A stretch of DNA of 34,781 bases from a virus (taxonomy: Duplodnaviria > Heunggongvirae > Uroviricota > Caudoviricetes): the IMG/VR virus record IMGVR_UViG_2713896902_000006; one strand, given 5' to 3'. Made by a program: the position numbers and the translations under genes. Below the pieces are notes generated by a model. The model saw only the letters and a program-made list of their open reading frames with translations, ran no database searches and was not told the origin of the DNA. Positions 323-32,613 of the stretch are shown here, in pieces. Position 1 is the stretch's first letter. Every line of letters begins with the position of its first letter.

Positions 323-712
323 TTACTCTTTTTTCTCCGTATCTGCATCGGGTTCATCAGCAAATAGCTTGCCCTGCATCCGATCCAGTTCTTCTTTTCT
401 TACCCGCTTAACCACGCTGTAGACCCACTGAAGCGAAACACCAAATTTGCGGGCCAGTTCGTGGTGGTTGCGTCCGTTAAACTCCCTGAAGATTTCCCGG
501 TCGCGCTGACTGACCTTCCATACCATGCCCATCGGGAAATAAACGTTTTGCCCGCCCCAGACCTGCATCATTCGGTTCGCGACGGCCTGACCAATCTGGT
601 CGGCAATTGCGGGCTCAATATCAATAATCTCGCGAACGGTCTCAGAGGTATGCTGTGCCAGTTCCACCAGGAGTTCCGGCCCTTTACTTCGAAACTGATT
701 CAGGTCGCTCAT
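323..712 (-). CDS. mor: Mor/C-family transcriptional activator (middle or late operon regulator)
   Basis: 129 aa, same length class as Mu Mor; C-terminal HTH-like segment (ARKFGVSLQWVYSVVKRVRK); last gene of the early operon directly after the GemA-like gene; GGGAG RBS 6 nt upstream of ATG. Confidence 0.7.
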   Translation of the reverse strand: MSDLNQFRSKGPELLVELAQHTSETVREIIDIEPAIADQIGQAVANRMMQVWGGQNVYFPMGMVWKVSQRDREIFREFNGRNHHELARKFGVSLQWVYSVVKRVRKEELDRMQGKLFADEPDADTEKKE

Positions 713-1136
713 GTTTTACTCCCGTAGCTCTGCGCTGCCACTTCTTCAGTTTCTCAATAACACTGCTTGCCTGTTCAGTACTGAGCCAGCGCAGGGCGCT
801 GATGCCCGTTTCCCGCTTGATCCACCGCGCTAATGCATTTTCTGAACGGTCACGAACAATGCCGGCAGCAGCCATTTCAAGCCATAGAGCACGGATTTTC
901 CTGGACTGCGGATGGTTATCCTGCTGTAAACCGGAGCTGGCTTTTCCGGCAAGCTTAACGCGAAAGCCTTTCCTTTTCATGGATTCCAGCACGCAGTTTA
1001 GTTGTGTGGTATCCATTCCTTTGGTTGAGGCTTTACCGGTCAGCCCCTCTAACATCTGGCGGTAGGTGTCTTCATCCATACCCAGTTCATTACGGGCAAT
1101 ATGAATGAGCTGGATAAGACGTTGTTTAGTCATCAT
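684..1136 (-). CDS. gemA: GemA-like protein (Mu gp16 family)
   Basis: Position immediately upstream of the Mor-like gene as in Mu; start placed at internal ATG 1136 (MMTKQRL...) because it has an AGGAG RBS, whereas the 1175 ATG has none; family call from recollection of Mu GemA. Confidence 0.55.
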   Translation of the reverse strand: MMTKQRLIQLIHIARNELGMDEDTYRQMLEGLTGKASTKGMDTTQLNCVLESMKRKGFRVKLAGKASSGLQQDNHPQSRKIRALWLEMAAAGIVRDRSENALARWIKRETGISALRWLSTEQASSVIEKLKKWQRRATGVKHERPESVSK

Positions 1137-1341
1137 CGTTGCTCCTTTTACCTGCGCCACCGATATAATCGACATATAAAGGAAGCGCCACAGGCCAGCA
1201 CAGGAACATCACCGACCAGCTAATCCAGTAGCCGGCACCACTGTAACGTGAATAAAACCCTGAACGGCGGTGCAGTTCAGCAGTACACCAACCGACAAAA
1301 CAATACCAGAACAGGGCACTTACAACAGATTCAGCAGTCAT
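1126..1341 (-). CDS. small hydrophobic protein (two predicted TM segments), hypothetical
   Basis: Internal ATG of ORF 1126..1497 preceded by a G-run; hydrophobic stretches FWYCFVGWC and WISWSVMFLCWPVALPLYV; compact coupling with neighbours. Confidence 0.35.
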   Translation of the reverse strand: MTAESVVSALFWYCFVGWCTAELHRRSGFYSRYSGAGYWISWSVMFLCWPVALPLYVDYIGGAGKRSNDDD

Positions 1342-1561
1342 TCTGAATATCCCCCCAACTGATATGAATATTACGGGCAGCAATGACAGGGTCGTTATTC
1401 CACCATGCACCTGACATGTATTTTTCAACCTGTTCGCGTCCGGCAATAACACCAATTGTGATCCCCGGCCTGACGTTCTTAAAAAAGGCGCGGGCAAAAA
1501 GGTATCTGGCAGATATTCGGCAGGCTTTTAATTTCCGGCTGTTACCTGATAGCGTAATCAT
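1331..1561 (-). CDS. hypothetical early protein
   Basis: 76-aa ORF whose start overlaps the stop of the upstream gene, consistent with translational coupling; no recognisable motif. Confidence 0.4.
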   Translation of the reverse strand: MITLSGNSRKLKACRISARYLFARAFFKNVRPGITIGVIAGREQVEKYMSGAWWNNDPVIAARNIHISWGDIQNDC

Positions 1562-2241
1562 CTGACCTCCAGTTTCTGTTGTTCCTGCCCACTGACCGGG
1601 CGGTGCAGTCTGACGTTCTGCCCTTCAAGAAACCCCGCATAGCGCGAGGCGTCGCCATTGCGGCTTCTTCCCGGTTTACGCGCCCTGGTGGTTTGCGTTT
1701 GCGGGTATTTATGCTCCAGCCACTGCTGCATCAATTCACGTTCGTCATCGGTCAGGGCGAAGGACTGTATTTCACTGATAACGGCCAGCACCCAGCCTTC
1801 AGCAAACTGGTCACCACGGCTGGTACGGGTGGCAGTTTTTATTCTTTTGTTCTGTGCGCTGATATACTGCTGACGCGCCTTTTTCAGCTGGCGGGCCAGC
1901 ACTTTCCAGGTGTACGCAGCCAGTGCGGCCCGTTCCCGGTTGCCGTAGAACCCCACACCCGGATATGTGCCGGGGTGAATGATGGAGTTAACACCAAATG
2001 CCTCGCGGATGATGTTCATCAGGCCCAGCATGTAGCGCGGTGGACGGAGGCTGCCTGTCGGCCAGTAGTGACTGATGGTTTCATCAATATCACTCATGGC
2101 GATGTCGGAATGTGTGATGCCGTGAACATCCATCAGTTTACGGGCACGGCGCAGTGCCAGAGCGGCCTCGTGCGGGTTGCCGGATGCGGCCAGCGCCAGC
2201 AACTTTTTCAGTTTCTCAATGTGTTTATCTTGGTCTGTCAT
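1558..2241 (-). CDS. DUF2786-like phage early protein
   Basis: N-terminal KLKKLLALAASGNPHEAALALRRARKLM motif that I recall as characteristic of DUF2786; ATGA start/stop overlap with upstream gene; GGAGA RBS. Confidence 0.55.
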   Translation of the reverse strand: MTDQDKHIEKLKKLLALAASGNPHEAALALRRARKLMDVHGITHSDIAMSDIDETISHYWPTGSLRPPRYMLGLMNIIREAFGVNSIIHPGTYPGVGFYGNRERAALAAYTWKVLARQLKKARQQYISAQNKRIKTATRTSRGDQFAEGWVLAVISEIQSFALTDDERELMQQWLEHKYPQTQTTRARKPGRSRNGDASRYAGFLEGQNVRLHRPVSGQEQQKLEVR

Positions 2242-2543
2242 TGTTCAGTATCTCCGGTGTACATGACGCCCAGCCGTGCGGCAAGGCGTTCCAGTTTTTT
2301 CTGTTTGTGGAAGTCAATCAGCCGGTCCATCCCCTGAAGGCGCAGCTGCTCTGTCATGATTTCCACATCTGCCAGCTCTGCCGCGAGGTCACTTTCGCTG
2401 CCCTGTCCGTTCAGGTTGCGGGCAGCACAGGCTGCCAGTTCAGCGGCCTCTTCTGTCAGTTTCAGGGCCTGTGCGTCCGGCCCGAAACGCTGCAGGGCCA
2501 GACGGTAGAGGGCGGTGCGGGTGAGTATGGTGTTCCGTGTCAT
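2238..2543 (-). CDS. MazG-like nucleotide pyrophosphohydrolase-fold protein (small, all-alpha)
   Basis: 101 aa with paired acidic helical motifs (TEEAAELAA... and ELADVEIMTEQL) typical of the MazG/HisE-like family; coupled to flanking genes. Confidence 0.5.
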   Translation of the reverse strand: MTRNTILTRTALYRLALQRFGPDAQALKLTEEAAELAACAARNLNGQGSESDLAAELADVEIMTEQLRLQGMDRLIDFHKQKKLERLAARLGVMYTGDTEQ

Positions 2544-2552
2544 GCTGCGACC

Positions 2553-2825
2553 TCAGTGTTTCCGGCTGACGGTGATGTGCAGACCACCTTCTGCAGTGGT
2601 TTCCATCCGGTACGGCACCTCGTGCTCTGCCGTGTGGGTGAGTGTGTTCACCAGTACCTGCAGGGCAGCCGCCTTTCCGTTGGTCGCCACAATGGCCTGA
2701 GCGGCCATGCTGATTAGCGCCGTAAGGACGTGCTTCACATCGGTGAGGTCGCGGCATTCACACTCGTTGACATAGTGTTCAACAAGGGTTCGGGTGCGCT
2801 GTCGTGCTTCCTGTGGGGTAATCAT
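2553..2825 (-). CDS. hypothetical early protein
   Basis: 90-aa ORF with strong GGGAGGA RBS 6 nt upstream; ATGA overlap with upstream gene. Confidence 0.5.
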   Translation of the reverse strand: MITPQEARQRTRTLVEHYVNECECRDLTDVKHVLTALISMAAQAIVATNGKAAALQVLVNTLTHTAEHEVPYRMETTAEGGLHITVSRKH

Positions 2826-3016
2826 TGCGCTTCCTCCCTGTCAGGGCGGGAGAATTCCATGACGGGCACGTCTGCCGAAAAATGCTGACTGCAGTACGGA
2901 CAGACCAGGGTGACGCGTACTGCAGGTACGTGGTACTTACCGGACATCACGGCGATGGCGCTGTGAAAACGCAGGGCTGTTATATCCCTCTCGCACTGAA
3001 TACATTTAAATATCAT
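2822..3016 (-). CDS. small zinc-ribbon-like protein (CxxC ... CxxC)
   Basis: 64 aa with CIQC near the N-terminus and CPYC later, a paired CxxC pattern; GAGGAG RBS before ATG at 3016. Confidence 0.5.
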   Translation of the reverse strand: MIFKCIQCERDITALRFHSAIAVMSGKYHVPAVRVTLVCPYCSQHFSADVPVMEFSRPDREEAQ

Positions 3017-3113
3017 GATTTAATTCTCCTCTGTTTCCGGCGTGCAGAAGCCCACGGCGCTGACGCCGGAATAAAAAAGAAAATGTTTTTATTAAATAAT
3101 TAACGTGGTGTGT

Positions 3114-3644
3114 TTACTGCACATCCTGCTCAAAAGGAATTATTGAAAAATCCTCAATATCGCTTTTTATGGTAATACCGGGAATATTTTTCACAGCCTC
3201 TTTTTCATTCAGAATGGCATCTTTATTTATTTCCTCCTTTACACGAATAAAGCGCTCAAGCCCCAGACGTCTCAGTAGTTCAATAACATTATCCGCCCCG
3301 CGAATGCTGACTGACGGTGGACGGTTTCGCCACTGCACCTCGCCAGTGGTGAGGTTAGCGAACTTCACCTTCCCGTTGCCGGTCAGTTCATCACGGTGTG
3401 CCTCACACCATGTCTGGATACCGGACTGCAGTTCGGCCATGCGTTTTTTCAGGCTCTCGGTGAGCGGGGCATAACGTGCGGTGATGTCGCCAATGGCGTC
3501 ATTCATTTCTGTTTCAGTCCTGACCAGTTCACGTTGTGCATCACCGAGCAGTCTGATTCCCTCAATGACCTCTTCGCGTGTCCCCGGTACCCAGAGTGCT
3601 GCTGCGGCCTTGATACGTTTTGCCCCTTTTGTACTTTTTGCCAT
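3114..3644 (-). CDS. gam: host-nuclease inhibitor Gam (Mu Gam family)
   Basis: 176 aa, matching the length and charged coiled-coil character of Mu Gam; location in the semi-essential region downstream of the B-like ATPase. Confidence 0.75.
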   Translation of the reverse strand: MAKSTKGAKRIKAAAALWVPGTREEVIEGIRLLGDAQRELVRTETEMNDAIGDITARYAPLTESLKKRMAELQSGIQTWCEAHRDELTGNGKVKFANLTTGEVQWRNRPPSVSIRGADNVIELLRRLGLERFIRVKEEINKDAILNEKEAVKNIPGITIKSDIEDFSIIPFEQDVQ

Positions 3645-3671
3645 ATTTTATGATTTCTCCAGTTATGCTGA

Positions 3672-3941
3672 TTACCACAAAGATTCCGGCCACACGACGC
3701 GACAGCCGTGCAGTTCGAAAACGCCCTGACGGAAATATCCCCTGTTGTCATGTCCGGTATACAGATAACAGGCCTTTCCCTGCTCAAGCATGCGCATGCA
3801 ATGCGCACTCCGGGAAACGCGAATGACAGGTTTGTTACCCCTGATGGTGATGCTTTGTACATCCGTGTTCGTGGCCTTAAGCGCCATAATGGCTGACTGC
3901 ACTTTGCTGATTTGCTGGTTGATACCTGTGGTGGATTTCAT
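3672..3941 (-). CDS. hypothetical early protein (occupies the kil position of Mu)
   Basis: 89-aa ORF starting 3 nt after the stop of the B-like gene; call is positional only. Confidence 0.4.
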   Translation of the reverse strand: MKSTTGINQQISKVQSAIMALKATNTDVQSITIRGNKPVIRVSRSAHCMRMLEQGKACYLYTGHDNRGYFRQGVFELHGCRVVWPESLW

Positions 3942-8433: not shown

Positions 8434-8841
8434 ATGAGTACAAAAGAGAGATTGCGTGAAGTGATGGATGCTAATGGCATGACAATAAAGGCATTATCTG
8501 ACTTATCAAAAATTCCATATCGCTCACTTCAAAACTATTTGCGTGGAGAGAGAGAACCAAACGCAGAGGCTCTTGTTGCGCTAAGTACCCATTTGGGTGT
8601 ATCGATCGATTGGCTACTTACCGGTAAAGAACATATTCCATCTAAAGAAATTGTTGCTGTACCAACACAACATCAATTCAGCCCGTCAGACCTTAAAATG
8701 CTTGAACTTCTAAACCAGTTAGATCCTGAGGTTCGGCGAGATCTCATGCGAGGCGCTGAAGAAAAACAGCGTGTGATTGAGATGGAAAAACAACTGAAGG
8801 AATTATCCGCAACGATTGAGCGGTTAAAAAATGTGGGTTAA
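8434..8841 (+). CDS. phage repressor, XRE-family HTH
   Basis: 135 aa from ATG 8434; HTH TIKALSDLSKIPYRSLQNYLRGEREP...LVALSTHLGVSIDWLL; divergent from the early operon; AT-rich codon usage. Confidence 0.7.
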   Translation: MSTKERLREVMDANGMTIKALSDLSKIPYRSLQNYLRGEREPNAEALVALSTHLGVSIDWLLTGKEHIPSKEIVAVPTQHQFSPSDLKMLELLNQLDPEVRRDLMRGAEEKQRVIEMEKQLKELSATIERLKNVG

Positions 8842-8911
8842 TGTGTTCCTAACGAGAACATATAGCAGAAATTATTTGCCATTAAGCAATAAAAAATAAG
8901 GTGGATAGCCA

Positions 8912-9919
8912 ATGTCTGAGCAGACCATTGAAGTTAAACACGTTGTAGTTCACATTTTAGACAAACAACAAAATGGAGACGCTTCTGAGAGATTGAGTCC
9001 TGAAGAAGGTCTAGTTACTGAAGCCTCTCAGCGCCTTATAAACGATATTTGTGCAAAATATGCAGGACGCACAGGTAAAGGTTATGGCTATTTTGAAGGC
9101 GATACGGATAACTATCCTATGGAACGAATGGCTGGGGACTTTCTCGAAGGTGTTGATGATTTCTACCAAAGTTCCTGCCGAATGATGCATCACCTGACGG
9201 AACGTTCTCAGCGAGAAAACATGGCTACTGGTGGTTATGTTCTTTTTGCAAATATCGTGATAGGACACAATGAACACCTGTTGATAGCTATTGTAAGCGC
9301 TACCATTGGGTCCACTGTCACAGATGATTTTAACATCCAAGATAGTACCTACCTTGATATTGCTAAGCTGCGTATGGCTGGGCGCATTGACTTAACCGCG
9401 TGGGAAAGTGGCGCAGAGCGCTATATCAGTTTTCTTAAGGGGCAAGGTAATGTTTCAAACTATTTTAAACAGTTCCTCGGCTGTAATGATGTCTTAATCG
9501 CCAAACGAGAGTCTGAAAAGTTACGTGACGTTTTAAAAGCATTTGCGGCAGAGAAAGGACTTGACGGCGCTGAAAAAGATGCATTTCTTAAGAGTGCGTT
9601 TGAACACTTACATGCACTAAGTAAGGCTGGTGAACCACTTAGTCTTGAAACCCTTGTTAATGCCATTTGGCCCCAGGCTCCCGAGGAGTTATCTGGTAAA
9701 CTTGCTGCTGAAGAGTTGGAGTTATCGGATGGCTTCGTTCCTGATGGTCGAGTCATTCGGGCTCTGGTATCTTTTAAAGGCAAGTCTAAATATTGGGAAC
9801 TTAAGTTTGACCGGGAAGGGAAAACTGAAGGCTATATTGATTATGATCCGGAAACAAATATTATCACCCTACGTAATGTACCTGAAGAATTTAGGGAAAT
9901 GTGGATGACTGAGGTTTAA
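8912..9919 (+). CDS. YejK/NdpA-family nucleoid-associated protein paralogue
   Basis: 335 aa, the same length as E. coli YejK; shared blocks recalled from YejK: GG(Y/F)VLF, YLDI, (G/A)RIDLT.WE, RY(I/L).FLKG, and a C-terminal block ending DP.T..(I/L)T(L/I). AAGGTGG RBS. Confidence 0.7.
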   Translation: MSEQTIEVKHVVVHILDKQQNGDASERLSPEEGLVTEASQRLINDICAKYAGRTGKGYGYFEGDTDNYPMERMAGDFLEGVDDFYQSSCRMMHHLTERSQRENMATGGYVLFANIVIGHNEHLLIAIVSATIGSTVTDDFNIQDSTYLDIAKLRMAGRIDLTAWESGAERYISFLKGQGNVSNYFKQFLGCNDVLIAKRESEKLRDVLKAFAAEKGLDGAEKDAFLKSAFEHLHALSKAGEPLSLETLVNAIWPQAPEELSGKLAAEELELSDGFVPDGRVIRALVSFKGKSKYWELKFDREGKTEGYIDYDPETNIITLRNVPEEFREMWMTEV

Positions 9920-9921
9920 TC

Positions 9922-11127
9922 GTGGCGATTTCATTTGAGATGCTGACAGCTCTGTATCGTCGTATGGAATTCCAAGAGGGGTTTCGTGTCGGTTCGCTGT
10001 TGCTCTTAGATCAGTCCGATTGTGATCTGGTTGATACTTTGCTTGATGATCCTCGTGAATATGGTCTTTCTATTGATACAGGCACTATCGCTCCAGGTAA
10101 CACGATCATCCTACGTGTGACGTCACCACGGAGTGGACTGGGACTTGTGTTTTCCACCCATGAAAAATTGCTAAATGCTCCAAAGCATCAGTGCCTTGAG
10201 CCAGCTAATTACTTCATCCTAGAAACAAAATTTCGTAATGATGATGAAGATATCCCCGTTTTCATCAGCAACTACCGGAAGATTCTCGAGTTCGTTAACC
10301 TGCTAAAAGAGGCCGCGGCCTACTTTGATAACTCAACTTGTCAGTTAGTTTTTCTGAAAAAAGAAGTTATCAAGCTATTACCGCACTTCGCTGCAGAAAA
10401 TGTACAAAATTTGCAAAGGGAGTATCTTGATAACCTTATAGCTTGTTTCAATGATGATACCCATAAGGATCAGAAGCTAGATATTCTGATTGAAAGTATC
10501 CAAGCAGTTAGTGATGGAATTGATTCACCTCTAGTATTCGCTTATTTACTGGACAATATTCAGCGTCTGCATGAAAAGTTTCTGAAAGGGTATCGTATCT
10601 ACTCTTCTGGATTCTCTTATGACAAAGTAATGGATCAACTGCGTGCTGCAAAAGTCGAAGAAATGGGTAAAATCCACAAAGCGTTTTCAGATATCCAGAA
10701 CCATATACTTGGCATTCCTGTTGCCTCTGTTATCGTAGCTACCCAATTCAAAGTGGCTACGAAATGGTCAGGCCAAGGGATAACAAACACAATAATTCTT
10801 CTGGGATGCATTTTTGCTGCAACGTTAATCTGGCTGGCACTTTCGAACCAGATGCAATCTATAAAGGCCTTAGGCGAAGAAATTGAATACAAAGAAAAAC
10901 AGATTAATAAGGAATATTCCTTCATTAAAGATGACGTGGCTGGTGTATTTAGCAGTATTTCTGCGCGACTAGACACGCAGAAACGTACGTTCTGGATTAT
11001 ACGTGGTGTTCTAGTTATGGGAATTATTACCGCTATCACTGTTTATTTTTGGTACACAAAACCAGCCCTTGACTTCATGCAGTACTTGATTCACTGCATG
11101 AAGTCTTACTATTCGGTCAAAAGTTGA
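9922..11127 (+). CDS. hypothetical protein with two C-terminal transmembrane helices (partner of the NdpA-like gene)
   Basis: GTG start 2 nt after the upstream stop with GAGG RBS; 401 aa; hydrophobic segments ITNTIILLGCIFAATLIWLALS and FWIIRGVLVMGIITAITVYFWY near the C-terminus; very AT-rich. Confidence 0.6.
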   Translation: MAISFEMLTALYRRMEFQEGFRVGSLLLLDQSDCDLVDTLLDDPREYGLSIDTGTIAPGNTIILRVTSPRSGLGLVFSTHEKLLNAPKHQCLEPANYFILETKFRNDDEDIPVFISNYRKILEFVNLLKEAAAYFDNSTCQLVFLKKEVIKLLPHFAAENVQNLQREYLDNLIACFNDDTHKDQKLDILIESIQAVSDGIDSPLVFAYLLDNIQRLHEKFLKGYRIYSSGFSYDKVMDQLRAAKVEEMGKIHKAFSDIQNHILGIPVASVIVATQFKVATKWSGQGITNTIILLGCIFAATLIWLALSNQMQSIKALGEEIEYKEKQINKEYSFIKDDVAGVFSSISARLDTQKRTFWIIRGVLVMGIITAITVYFWYTKPALDFMQYLIHCMKSYYSVKS

Positions 11128-11887
11128 GGATAATGAGTTCCTTCTTGCGACTGGATTTGCCAGTGATCTTGAGGTTGTAGCTGATATCAACCGACTGAAT
11201 ATTTAGACCGTTGAATGCCTGCCGCATTTCCGGGATATCGTTCACCGATATAATCATATTCCCTTTGATCCTGCGTGCTAAATCTGCCATATGATCATAA
11301 TTTTCTAGTCCGAACTCCACACCATAACCTTCCGTTCCCCAGTATGGAGGGTCACAGTAGAACAACGTATGCGGGCGATCATATCGTTCTATGCACTGTT
11401 GCCAGTCCATGTGTTCTATGACCGTTCTGGAAAGCCGCAGGTGTGCCGCTGACAGTTCATCTTCAATACGCAGCAGGTTGAAGCGTGGCGGGGATATGGT
11501 GGAGGTACCAAAGCTGTGCTCCGCCACCTTGCCTCCAAACGCCTGCTTCTGAAGGTAGTAGAACCGTGCTGCACGCTGGATATCCGTCAGTGTTTCTTCC
11601 GGGGTGATCTGCAGCCATTTGTAGATCTGCCGGCTGACCAGCGCCCATTTGAACTGGCGTACAAATTCTTCCAGATGATGTTTTACCACCCGATACAGGT
11701 TCACCAGCTCACCGTTGATATCATTAATGACTTCGATCTTGCCGGGTACCTTAAGAAAATAGAGCGCTGCTGCCCCACAAAACGGCTCCACATAACATTC
11801 ATGCGCCGGAAACAGCGGCAGGATGTGTTTTGCAAGGCGGCGTTTGCCACCAATCCATGGAACGATGGGTAATGTCTGCATTTTCAT
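11117..11887 (-). CDS. dam: DNA N6-adenine methyltransferase, Dam-like (orphan)
   Basis: DPPYW catalytic motif and EPFCGAAA SAM-binding-like motif; 256 aa; no adjacent restriction endonuclease; 3' end overlaps the convergent cassette gene by 11 bp. Confidence 0.8.
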   Translation of the reverse strand: MKMQTLPIVPWIGGKRRLAKHILPLFPAHECYVEPFCGAAALYFLKVPGKIEVINDINGELVNLYRVVKHHLEEFVRQFKWALVSRQIYKWLQITPEETLTDIQRAARFYYLQKQAFGGKVAEHSFGTSTISPPRFNLLRIEDELSAAHLRLSRTVIEHMDWQQCIERYDRPHTLFYCDPPYWGTEGYGVEFGLENYDHMADLARRIKGNMIISVNDIPEMRQAFNGLNIQSVDISYNLKITGKSSRKKELIILNF

Positions 11888-29586: not shown

Positions 29587-30728
29587 ACAGTACTGCGCAA
29601 GCCACATCAGCGTTAACCGGCGTCAGCGATGTGCTGACGCCGGTATTCACTCTGTGGTATCTGCAGAAAAACATCACCTCTGATATCGCGCCTTATGTCA
29701 CCCGTGTGGTCTGGAGCGATAACATCAAAAATGAGTCCGATACCATTGAGGTGGAGCTGGACGACACCGATGGCCGCTGGCTGGATAAGTGGTATCCGGG
29801 CAAGGGTGACACGCTGACGCTGAAAATGGGTTATCAGGGCGAGAAACTGCTGTCCTGCGGTACATTCTCAATAGACGAGATCGAAGTGAGTTCGCCCGCG
29901 TCCGTTGTCGCTATCCGTGGGGTGGCTACCTCGGTTAACAGTGCTCTGCGGACTAAATCCAGCCGTGGTTTTGAGAACACCACGCTGGCAGCTGTTGCGG
30001 GGCGGATTGCCAGAAAGCACCGGCTGAAACTGGTGGGCAGCATTGAGTCCATCAGAATCGACCGGGTGACCCAGTATGCTGAAACCGACGTGGGTTTTCT
30101 GCGCCGGCTGGCCAGCGAGTATGGTTATGCAGTGAAAGTGGTCAGTGACCAGCTGATTTTTTCTCATCTGGCCACACTTCGCAGTCAGGAGCCGGTCAGG
30201 CAGTTAAAACCGCAGGATGTGGCCTGCTTTTCCCTGCGTGACACCATCAACCGGGTCTATAAATCTGCAAAGGTAAAACACCAGAAAAGCAGCAGTAAAA
30301 AACTGATCGTCTACGAAGCTGATGGTGGTACCCGTGAAAGCGACAAAAAGCTCAAAGGCGGTAAGGTTACCAGCGCTGACTCACTTAAAGTTAACAGCCG
30401 CGTCAGCGACCCGGACAGTGCCCGGATTAAAGCGGATTCAGCACTGGCCAAACATAACGAATACCAGCAGAACGGCTCCCTGACGCTGACGGGAACGCCT
30501 CAACTGACAGCAGGCAACAAAATTGAACTGGTGGGCTTTGGACAGTTATCCGGTCCATGGCTGATAATCACTGCCCGCCATGCGTTTGAGCGTAACAGCG
30601 GCTACACCACAGAGCTGGAAGTGGCACGGGGGCCAGTCACAAGAGGGAAAAAACAAAAAACTCAGAAACTCACGGTTTATCACCCGGATGGCAGTACATC
30701 GACGGTGATTAAGGAGAAGAAAAAATGA
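29574..30728 (+). CDS. tail protein D (P2 gpD-like)
   Basis: 384 aa, matching the gpD size class; position U-X-D. Confidence 0.7.
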   Translation: MAEINSTAQATSALTGVSDVLTPVFTLWYLQKNITSDIAPYVTRVVWSDNIKNESDTIEVELDDTDGRWLDKWYPGKGDTLTLKMGYQGEKLLSCGTFSIDEIEVSSPASVVAIRGVATSVNSALRTKSSRGFENTTLAAVAGRIARKHRLKLVGSIESIRIDRVTQYAETDVGFLRRLASEYGYAVKVVSDQLIFSHLATLRSQEPVRQLKPQDVACFSLRDTINRVYKSAKVKHQKSSSKKLIVYEADGGTRESDKKLKGGKVTSADSLKVNSRVSDPDSARIKADSALAKHNEYQQNGSLTLTGTPQLTAGNKIELVGFGQLSGPWLIITARHAFERNSGYTTELEVARGPVTRGKKQKTQKLTVYHPDGSTSTVIKEKKK

Positions 30729-31237
30729 CTGGTGTCACCCGTCAGGTCGGTACGGTCAGTGCCGTTGATGCCGACAGGGTTCAGGCCCGCGTTCGTCTGC
30801 CTGAATGCGATAATCTGCGCACAAACTGGCTTAACGTGCTACAGCGCAATACCCAGGATAACAAGGATTACTGGCTCCCTGACGTGGGGGAGCAGGTTGA
30901 GGTGCTGCTCGATGCCAACGGCGAGGATGGTGTTATTCTGGGCGCGGTGTACTCAGACGTCGATAAACCGCCGTTCAGTGATAAAAACGTCCGGGGCACG
31001 AAGTACGCTGATGGCGCGGAGTTCAGTTATGACCGCGCGACCCATACGCTGACGGTCAAAGGAGGTATCGAGCATGTGGTGATCGAGGTTGCAGTGGGTA
31101 TTAGTCTGAAAGGGAAAACCATTGATTTGACAGCTGACACTATCATGGTGAACGGCAATCTTGAAATCAAAGGGAGTACCCATGCGACTGGTAACATATT
31201 TGCAGATGGACAGAATTCCAATCATCACTCTCACTAA
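30725..31237 (+). CDS. baseplate assembly protein V (spike, P2 gpV-like)
   Basis: 170 aa; conserved block WLPDVGEQVEVL comparable to the P2 gpV region; ATGA overlap with the D-like gene. Confidence 0.7.
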   Translation: MTGVTRQVGTVSAVDADRVQARVRLPECDNLRTNWLNVLQRNTQDNKDYWLPDVGEQVEVLLDANGEDGVILGAVYSDVDKPPFSDKNVRGTKYADGAEFSYDRATHTLTVKGGIEHVVIEVAVGISLKGKTIDLTADTIMVNGNLEIKGSTHATGNIFADGQNSNHHSH

Positions 31238-31318: not shown

Positions 31319-32194
31319 ATGCGGTTATCAAGATCCTTATGTAAAGTAGTTGGCGATGTCATTGCTAACTCAGGCTCTCATGCAGCTTTAGATACGTTAT
31401 TTCTTACTTCGGGAGCACCAGGAAACCCTCCGGCAGGATCTCATAGTACAAAATGGAAAGACTGGTTATTTCTTGCAGGGCAAGATCCAGATACAGATAG
31501 TCTGGCAGTTCTGGGCGGAGTAATTGAGGAGTTTATGGATTTACCTCCAAAAGAAGGTACTCCCGAATATGCAGAATGGAAGGAAAAACGAGACAGAATT
31601 GAAGCTGTGTTACAAGAGAATGGACTTAGATATTATCGTTTTGGTCGAGTGTTGCCTGAAGGCCACATCCCGTCACACAATATGGATTACCCAGAGACCA
31701 TAATTACTTATCAACAGCCAGTAATGCCAGAAAAAGTTGAGAACTTACTGGAAAGGCTGGTCAAAGGCTTACAGCGAGCAATGCATCCACTTACTCATAG
31801 GCGAAAAGGAAGCCAGTCATTATCTTTTAGCAATGAATATGACGTGCAAGACCTTCTCCATGCATTGCTCAGACCATGGGTTCAGGACATCCGCCCAGAA
31901 GAGTTTACTCCAAGTTACGCTGGTTCAAGTACTCGAATGGATTTTTTGTTACCTGCGCATAAATTAGTACTGGAAACCAAAATTGTTCGTGATCGTTCTC
32001 ATGCAAAGAAAATCGGCGATGAACTTATTATCGATATAGAGCATTATCGTCAGCACTCTGATTGCAAAAATCTCTGGTGTGTCATCTACGATCCGAACCA
32101 GTTTATTACTAATTCTGAGGGGCTGAAATCTGATCTTGAGGGGAAGAGAGTTTCTAAAGACGGAGAACTTATCGTCAAGGTTTTCGTAATTTAA
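31319..32194 (+). CDS. AT-rich moron ORF; protein with C-terminal PD-(D/E)xK-like nuclease motif pattern, function unknown
   Basis: 291 aa; inserted between V and W, which are adjacent in P2; flanked by 81-bp and 71-bp AT-rich non-coding spacers; C-terminal E (NEYDVQDLL), D (RMDFLL), ExK (VLETKIV) pattern. Confidence 0.6.
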   Translation: MRLSRSLCKVVGDVIANSGSHAALDTLFLTSGAPGNPPAGSHSTKWKDWLFLAGQDPDTDSLAVLGGVIEEFMDLPPKEGTPEYAEWKEKRDRIEAVLQENGLRYYRFGRVLPEGHIPSHNMDYPETIITYQQPVMPEKVENLLERLVKGLQRAMHPLTHRRKGSQSLSFSNEYDVQDLLHALLRPWVQDIRPEEFTPSYAGSSTRMDFLLPAHKLVLETKIVRDRSHAKKIGDELIIDIEHYRQHSDCKNLWCVIYDPNQFITNSEGLKSDLEGKRVSKDGELIVKVFVI

Positions 32195-32265: not shown

Positions 32266-32613
32266 ATGAAAACGACCTCAGTATTCTGGCAACCGGCTCT
32301 GCAGGCTCCCGGCGAAATCGTCCGGGGGCTGGATGATATCCAGCAGTCCATCCAGATCATCCTGCGGACTCCCCGCGGCAGCGACCCGCATCGCCCAGAG
32401 TTCGGCAGCAATCTGCACCTTTATATCGACTGGCCTGTCGACCGGGCCATTCCGCATGTGGTTCGCGAATCCGTCGATGCCATCAGGCGCTGGGAACCCC
32501 GCTGCCAGCTTATGTCGGTTAAACCCGCCGTCGACGGCGAACATCTTACGCTCCGGGTGAGCTGGAAAGGCTCAGACGGACAACCCCGTACTCAGGAACT
32601 GCTATGGCGCTGA
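32266..32613 (+). CDS. baseplate assembly protein W (P2 gpW-like)
   Basis: 115 aa; ILRTPRGS and WEPR blocks as in gpW-type proteins; followed by an overlapping J-like gene. Confidence 0.75.
   Translation: MKTTSVFWQPALQAPGEIVRGLDDIQQSIQIILRTPRGSDPHRPEFGSNLHLYIDWPVDRAIPHVVRESVDAIRRWEPRCQLMSVKPAVDGEHLTLRVSWKGSDGQPRTQELLWR

Follow-up and report, generated by a model that had tools for sequence, protein, structure and literature searches.

A DS-1-like gene pair downstream of the repressor gene in a BcepMu-like Escherichia coli prophage and its probable anti-phage membrane effector

Gene pairs in which a nucleoid-associated protein (NAP) related to YejK is followed by a membrane protein have been described as the anti-phage systems DS-1 and type II PANGU, and what appears to be a divergent pair of the same kind is carried by the stretch of viral DNA considered here (IMG/VR record IMGVR_UViG_2713896902_000006; Caudoviricetes), the whole 34,781 nt of which will be called the window. 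The second gene of the pair, coding for a protein of 401 amino acids (aa), is the main subject of the current study and will be referred to as the target gene. Its product is probably the membrane effector of a prophage-borne, two-gene anti-phage module of the DS-1/type II PANGU superfamily, one that would be triggered by the NAP and would abort infection.

DS-1, a validated system from the DefensePredictor study (Science 2026; PMC13092281), consists of DS-1A (WP_000355468.1) and DS-1B (WP_000150292.1). Cloned in E. coli with its native promoter, it reduces plating by about 7.6 logs for Bas1, 2.7 logs for Bas26, and 1.7 logs for Bas3 and T3 (PMC13092281, Table S7). Type II PANGU (bioRxiv 10.64898/2026.04.06.716658) is bicistronic, and pairs a YejK-like NAP (Pag2A) with a transmembrane (TM) effector that has an acidic N-terminal domain (Pag2B). 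According to the same preprint both genes are required and neither is toxic alone, Pag2A binds the N-terminal domain of Pag2B with a dissociation constant of 19 nM, and infected cultures stall at high multiplicity of infection (MOI) in a manner resembling abortive infection. A GFP-Pag2A fusion is found on the nucleoid before infection by T4 and is diffuse afterwards (bioRxiv 10.64898/2026.04.06.716658).

The pair in the window, and the junction at which its two genes meet, are as follows:
8912..9919, plus strand: gene for an NA37/YejK-like NAP of 335 aa, the presumed sensor and equivalent of DS-1A and Pag2A
9911..9924, plus strand: coupling junction, with a GAGG Shine-Dalgarno sequence (9911-9914), the NAP stop codon TAA (9917-9919), 2 nt, and a GTG start codon (9922-9924)
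9922..11127, plus strand: target gene, 401 aa with a GTG start, coding for a DS-1B-like membrane protein, the presumed effector

As in DS-1, the NA37/YejK-like gene comes first and is followed by a gene for a partner of about 400 aa (335 + 401 aa here, 391 + 404 aa in DS-1), and the two are separated by a junction of 2 nt (221777/221780 in DS-1). Homology between the partner proteins extends from the N-terminus up to where the last TM helix begins, both have C-terminal hydrophobic helices, and both carry the motif FS..K...L...K.E..KI....S..Q..L.IP.A; both pairs are prophage cargo. The two loci differ in their setting, as DS-1 occupies a lambdoid Q/lysis slot while the pair described here is downstream of the repressor in a BcepMu-like transposable prophage, and also in their proteins, since the NAP here is without the N-terminal extension of DS-1A and the partners are only 23% identical. 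The defining layout of type II PANGU, a bicistronic YejK-like NAP and TM protein, the latter with an acidic N-terminal domain (residues 1-260, net charge -11, pI 5.0) followed by hydrophobic helices (residues 261-378), was looked for and found at this locus. The preprint is silent on any prophage or repressor-operon context. Type II PANGU is the best mechanistic model available for the cassette.

The target open reading frame (ORF) is a real coding gene. An earlier note on this DNA, made from the sequence, had placed a 401-aa ORF at nt 9922-11127, and both its coordinates and its length were confirmed. An identical coding sequence (CDS) is annotated as a hypothetical protein (WP_001007984.1) in the RefSeq genome of E. 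coli M-17. The GTG start, which is backed by homologues, is credible because residue F5, which precedes the first internal methionine (M7), is nearly invariant in an alignment of 62 homologues, because the GAGG sequence lies 7 nt upstream of the GTG, and because the NAP gene stops 2 nt before it. A word-indexed search recovered 166 homologues of the target protein, and an exhaustive profile search (E<=1e-3) 1311 representatives of clusters formed at 50% identity.

The earlier note had found no recognisable family for this protein, a statement that could not be upheld: although Pfam is empty (with a limit of E<=1, the scan gave just two hits, both unrelated and below threshold), the protein matches PHROG 5023 end to end (E=1.9e-142), a family without functional annotation, and also the NCBIfam model NF053869 (DS1_2_antiphage; E=3e-21, 76 bits). 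The latter score falls short of the equivalog cut-off of 315 bits, so that an equivalog-level match to DS-1B was not obtained, but the same model matches 62 of 62 members of the target family. When compared directly by BLASTP with the DS-1B sequence (taken from Table S8 of PMC13092281), the target protein is 23% identical and co-linear over residues 74-355 (E=6e-10). Alignment of the two families by hhalign (62 target sequences, 40 DS-1B sequences) gave a probability of 99.2% and E=8e-20 over 350 columns, spanning query residues 5-368; the match begins at the N-terminus, takes in TM helix 1 and the charged linker, and ends at the beginning of TM helix 2. Common to both families is a motif block at about residues 224-277, FS.DK...L..AK.E..KIHK.FSDIQ..ILGIPVA. 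From these comparisons the target protein is homologous to DS-1B over its full length, but distantly and below the level of an equivalog. Neither WP_001007984.1 nor WP_000003711.1 was matched among the DefensePredictor score entries listed. Relatives of the partner protein outside the Proteobacteria were seen in metagenome-assembled genomes (MAGs) of Candidatus Yonathbacteria (Candidate Phyla Radiation) and Thermoanaerobaculia, at 34-35% identity, which suggests either a wide horizontal spread or contaminated bins.

The NAP is readily placed (Pfam PF04245, E=1e-80; PHROG 3767, E=7e-117). It scores 186 bits with the NCBIfam YejK model, the cut-off of which is 341 bits, and being below that cut-off it is a paralogue rather than the housekeeping yejK product. 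It also matches NF053868 (DS1_1_antiphage; E=1.4e-17), with 64 bits relative to a cut-off of 330 bits, so that here too the match is below equivalog level. By BLASTP it is 23% identical to DS-1A (E=8e-9), the alignment beginning at DS-1A residue 64.

That the target is the partner of an NdpA/YejK-like protein, as the earlier note had supposed, is borne out by other loci. Mechanical scoring was applied to 121 related loci, drawn from collections of viruses and of genomes; 116 of them were evaluable for NA37, and in 111 of the 116 an NA37 gene is immediately upstream and on the same strand. Of the five exceptions, four are truncated fragments and one is a copy with a frameshift. Loci inspected by hand, all with NA37 directly upstream on the same strand, were those of Paraburkholderia, Shewanella, Xenorhabdus, a Citrobacter lambdoid prophage, Sinorhizobium phage phi2LM21 and an Acinetobacter phage. 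The two genes overlap or lie within 7 nt of each other in 60 of 61 distinct cases (with start codons estimated by alignment). Pairwise divergences of the NAP and of the partner are correlated with r=0.92, a value reached in none of 999 Mantel permutations. This shows that the two proteins have been passed on together and have diverged at comparable rates, a result that agrees with their physical co-evolution but is no proof of it. Truncated copies in Cupriavidus retain only the C-terminal half (residues 191-392) and have no NA37 gene upstream, and may be either decayed cassettes or a stand-alone membrane module.

Within the target protein the following parts were distinguished, hydropathy values being Kyte-Doolittle averages over 19-residue windows:
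9922..10611, plus strand: acidic N-terminal soluble alpha/beta domain, residues 1-230, presumed to bind the NAP and to correspond to the 'DMK' domain of Pag2B
10618..10746, plus strand: long juxtamembrane helix, residues 233-275, with invariant or near-invariant columns from Y224 to K277 and helical in the model
10702..10761, plus strand: hydrophobic segment 0, residues 261-280, a possible third TM helix or half-membrane helix (maximum hydropathy 1.62, family-mean peak at 257-279)
10780..10848, plus strand: TM helix 1, residues 287-309 (maximum 2.33, family-mean peak at 284-314)
10849..10986, plus strand: charged helical linker, residues 310-355 (46 residues, 8 K/R and 8 D/E), a helical hairpin in the model
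10987..11055, plus strand: TM helix 2, residues 356-378 (maximum 1.95, family-mean peak at 350-382)

The two strongly hydrophobic C-terminal helices and the charged linker between them had been recognised in the earlier note, and are recovered here at residues 287-309 and 356-378 with 46 residues between them. What had been overlooked is a third segment (261-280), weaker in hydropathy yet conserved family-wide and among the best-conserved sequence of the family. Similarly, the large N-terminal soluble domain is confirmed but its boundary is not: it had been put near residue 280, and is better placed near residue 230, because residues 233-275 form a long and very conserved juxtamembrane helix. 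This helix is the most conserved stretch of the family, with the motif FSYDK...KIHK.FSDIQNQILGIPVA. Invariant residues of the protein include Y224, F231-S232-Y233, K235, P266, K277, N309/Q310, R349 and Q353. Residues 1-260 have, as a family median, a net charge of -9. In the linker region the conserved residues are N309/Q310, E320, R349 and Q353, and the family median of K/R in the linker is 8, compared with 0-1 in the other loops. By the positive-inside rule this favours a cytoplasmic position for the hairpin of residues 310-355, which would imply not a simple hairpin of two helices but three membrane segments, or one span with a re-entrant pair.

A full-length AlphaFold2 model (mean predicted local distance difference test score, pLDDT, of 79) has an alpha/beta domain at residues 1-228 and helices at 233-275, 284-331, 333-378 and 380-400. 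When the N-terminal domain was modelled by itself with a deeper alignment, the pLDDT rose to 95, with a predicted TM-score (pTM) of 0.89. This modelled domain has no structural relative in the PDB or in BFVD, and a profile search of PDB sequences with the target gave nothing meaningful (best E=1.2). The protein has the membrane-anchored effector architecture that had been proposed previously.

The window is a transposable E. coli prophage resembling BcepMu. It carries Mor, Gam, a DDE transposase, and Mu-type head and tail genes, with the early operon directed leftward and the late genes rightward. Directly upstream of the pair is one further gene needed for the argument:
8434..8841, plus strand: prophage repressor-type helix-turn-helix (HTH) gene (Pfam HTH_3, E=6e-12; Phage_CI_repr, E=2.5e-6; RefSeq CDS start at 8434; G+C content 0.414)

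Reading rightward, the repressor-type gene is followed by the NAP gene and then by the target gene, and the three make up a block of low G+C content (0.41-0.43, compared with 0.53-0.62 for the backbone). A search between the repressor and NAP genes found no terminator-like site. A scan for promoters and terminators gave 11 counts relative to 7.8+-2.7 in shuffled sequence, which is not above expectation, and so no claim of a dedicated promoter is made. Transcription of the cassette in the lysogen is probably supplied by the repressor gene. The cassette itself is cargo, an insertion of 2.2 kb immediately after the repressor gene: among 5426 complete E. coli genomes the prophage Dam methylase gene, which lies beyond the pair, occurs in 535, and only 19 of these have the NAP and partner cassette. 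Two E. coli relatives that were sampled have the repressor followed directly by the convergent Dam gene, with the slot empty (Dam identity 88.8-90%); the band of 88-90% Dam identity holds most of the matching genomes. In phage KP12 the slot holds a different gene, of 177 aa, which matches nothing in Pfam or PADLOC and so gives no grounds for regarding the slot as a defence hotspot. The repressor-to-Dam junction of BcepMu-like enterobacterial prophages (nt 8842..11127 in the window) is a variable cargo slot.

In Citrobacter and Raoultella/Klebsiella lambdoid prophages, members of the target and DS-1B subfamilies occupy one and the same slot, between the Q antiterminator gene and the holin/lysozyme genes and on the opposite strand. 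The slot after Q is a classic moron position.

In phage lambda, the genes that directly follow the prophage repressor gene code for RexA, a cytoplasmic sensor associated with DNA, and for RexB, an effector that crosses the inner membrane several times. Together they abort infection by superinfecting phage. The pair described here resembles Rex in outline, both in its position after the repressor and in its combination of a DNA-associated sensor with a membrane effector. Unlike the target protein, RexB spans the membrane with four TM helices and is without a large soluble domain, and RexA does not belong to the NA37 proteins; scans against Pfam and PADLOC gave no match to Rex.

If type II PANGU is taken as the guide, the pair might act in five steps. 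The two genes lie downstream of the repressor on the same strand, a position that makes their expression in the lysogen probable, and they are translationally coupled. In the uninfected cell the NAP would reside on the nucleoid, apart from the membrane protein, as the PANGU preprint describes for Pag2A. An invading lytic phage that degrades the host chromosome would then release it (T4 and its EndoII in the preprint). The freed NAP could bind the acidic cytoplasmic N-terminal domain (residues 1-230), as homology and co-inheritance suggest. Lastly, binding may switch the juxtamembrane helix and the two or three hydrophobic helices into an active state in which membrane integrity or energisation is damaged, so that the infection would be aborted before progeny are made.

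A number of points weigh against this proposal. The target is only 23% identical to DS-1B and scores 76 rather than 315 bits with the DS-1B model, and function could have drifted. The NAP scores higher with the YejK model (186 bits) than with the DS-1A model (64 bits). According to the BLASTP alignment, its 335 aa include no counterpart of the extension with which DS-1A begins; this extension may be a zinc ribbon (DS-1A residues 3-26 have a weak NinF/Zn-ribbon-like match in the authors' table, PMC13092281). The likeness to type II PANGU is one of described architecture, and the preprint itself regards both the activation of Pag2B by Pag2A and the action of Pag2B as undetermined (bioRxiv 10.64898/2026.04.06.716658). 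The net charge of -11 on the N-terminal domain is modest for a DNA mimic. The membrane segments may number two or three, with the linker on either side. Action at the membrane is inferred for every member of the family, and the cassette in the window is known from its sequence alone.

Of the other explanations, the one that survives best, though still improbable, is a reversal of roles resembling Kiwa, in which the membrane protein would sense phage attachment or injection, or serve as an anchor at the envelope, while the NAP coats and silences the phage DNA and no cell is killed. In form, the combination recalls KwaA and KwaB, where a membrane protein is likewise paired with one that binds DNA, and the PADLOC hidden Markov model for KwaA matches residues 262-394 of the target (E=8e-5). 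This match covers only the hydrophobic helices, however, and the NAP has no match to KwaB in PADLOC. There is no KwaB/DUF4868 partner at the locus, and KwaA is without the 230-residue N-terminal domain. The nucleoid location of Pag2A before infection, its diffuse distribution afterwards, and the stalling of cultures at high MOI (bioRxiv 10.64898/2026.04.06.716658) also speak against such a reversal. Homology to KwaA was rejected separately, as the single-sequence match in PADLOC recurs in only 3 of 62 relatives.

Less probable again is superinfection exclusion, by which the target would act at the inner membrane to keep out the DNA of competing phages, with the NAP in an accessory or regulatory part. 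Inner-membrane proteins encoded beside prophage repressors often have this function, and the cassette is directly downstream of a repressor, but exclusion leaves unexplained both the near-obligate, translationally coupled pairing with the NAP and, in type II PANGU, the requirement for two genes and the growth curves resembling abortive infection. A role for the phage itself, such as holding the nucleoid or the DNA of the prophage at the membrane, or tuning the time of lysis during transpositional replication, is very unlikely because most related prophages are without the cassette.

The 3' end of the target gene meets the Dam gene of the prophage:
11117..11887, minus strand: convergent Dam gene, overlapping the 3' end of the target gene by 11 bp

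This overlap had been noted before and is exact, but the further idea that it couples the expression or function of the two genes has almost nothing left to commend it, being rejected on comparative data, and already largely refuted, since Dam is found within 1.5 kb downstream in only 6 of 107 loci, all of them close kin of this prophage, and keeps its place in related prophages where the slot is empty or holds other cargo. The G+C content of Dam (0.49) also differs from that of the cassette (0.41-0.43). A DS-1B homologue overlaps the convergent Q gene by 30 bp, and for this reason convergent overlaps are better viewed as a by-product of tight cargo insertion. Since the cassette is an insertion, and Dam occurs also in prophages without it, Dam belongs to the phage backbone and is not a partner. 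One locus would fit coupling: in Sinorhizobium phage phi2LM21 the NAP and partner genes are likewise followed by a convergent methylase gene of the Dam family, 44% identical to the Dam of the window. This group of three genes (phi2LM21 nt 628..3718; methylase E=4e-68) is in an unrelated alphaproteobacterial phage; its recurrence there may be coincidence, and it leaves the rejection of coupling as it stands.

A second cargo gene of low G+C content is found at nt 31319..32194 (plus strand, 291 aa), between the genes for the baseplate spike (30725..31237) and gp25/W (32266..32613). The C-terminal half of its product is formed by a restriction endonuclease domain of the DpnII/MboI type (PF18742, E=3e-47), and the 'Aga_Helical-REase' models of PADLOC match it over the endonuclease domain only (E=1.7e-30). 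DpnII and MboI cleave unmethylated GATC. The prophage Dam may therefore be connected with this nuclease, and not with the TM protein.

In outline, then, the picture of a membrane effector partnered with an NdpA-like protein, as drawn in the earlier note, has held, while its lack of a family and its link to Dam have not. A bolder version of the NAP-triggered effector can be offered only tentatively. The hairpin rich in K/R, together with the juxtamembrane helix and the hydrophobic segment of half length, might constitute a ligand-gated channel that is opened by a protein signal derived from the chromosome. It would then be a Rex-like 'dead-man switch' built on a soluble domain with no relative of its fold in the PDB or BFVD, and would have come under lysogenic control independently in transposable and lambdoid prophages. 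If that is correct, this family of about 1300 clusters (at 50% identity), which is absent from Pfam, would represent a new class of membrane effectors gated by a NAP, and one in which it would be practicable to study how the membrane is informed that the nucleoid has lost its integrity.

The cassette itself is best regarded, from its homologies, as a divergent member of the known DS-1/type II PANGU kind and not as a new type of system, and the picture published in 2026 is left unchanged. What is gained is a probable function for a 'hypothetical protein' of E. coli prophages (the exact cassette being present in 19 of 5426 complete genomes) and for a large family without a Pfam entry. The DS-1-like modules comprise at least two deeply diverged subfamilies, both of which reside in classic prophage cargo slots, in Mu-like phages after the repressor gene and in lambdoid phages between Q and the genes for lysis. 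The helix of residues 233-275, which leads into the membrane, is where the mechanism of the type II PANGU effector should be sought.

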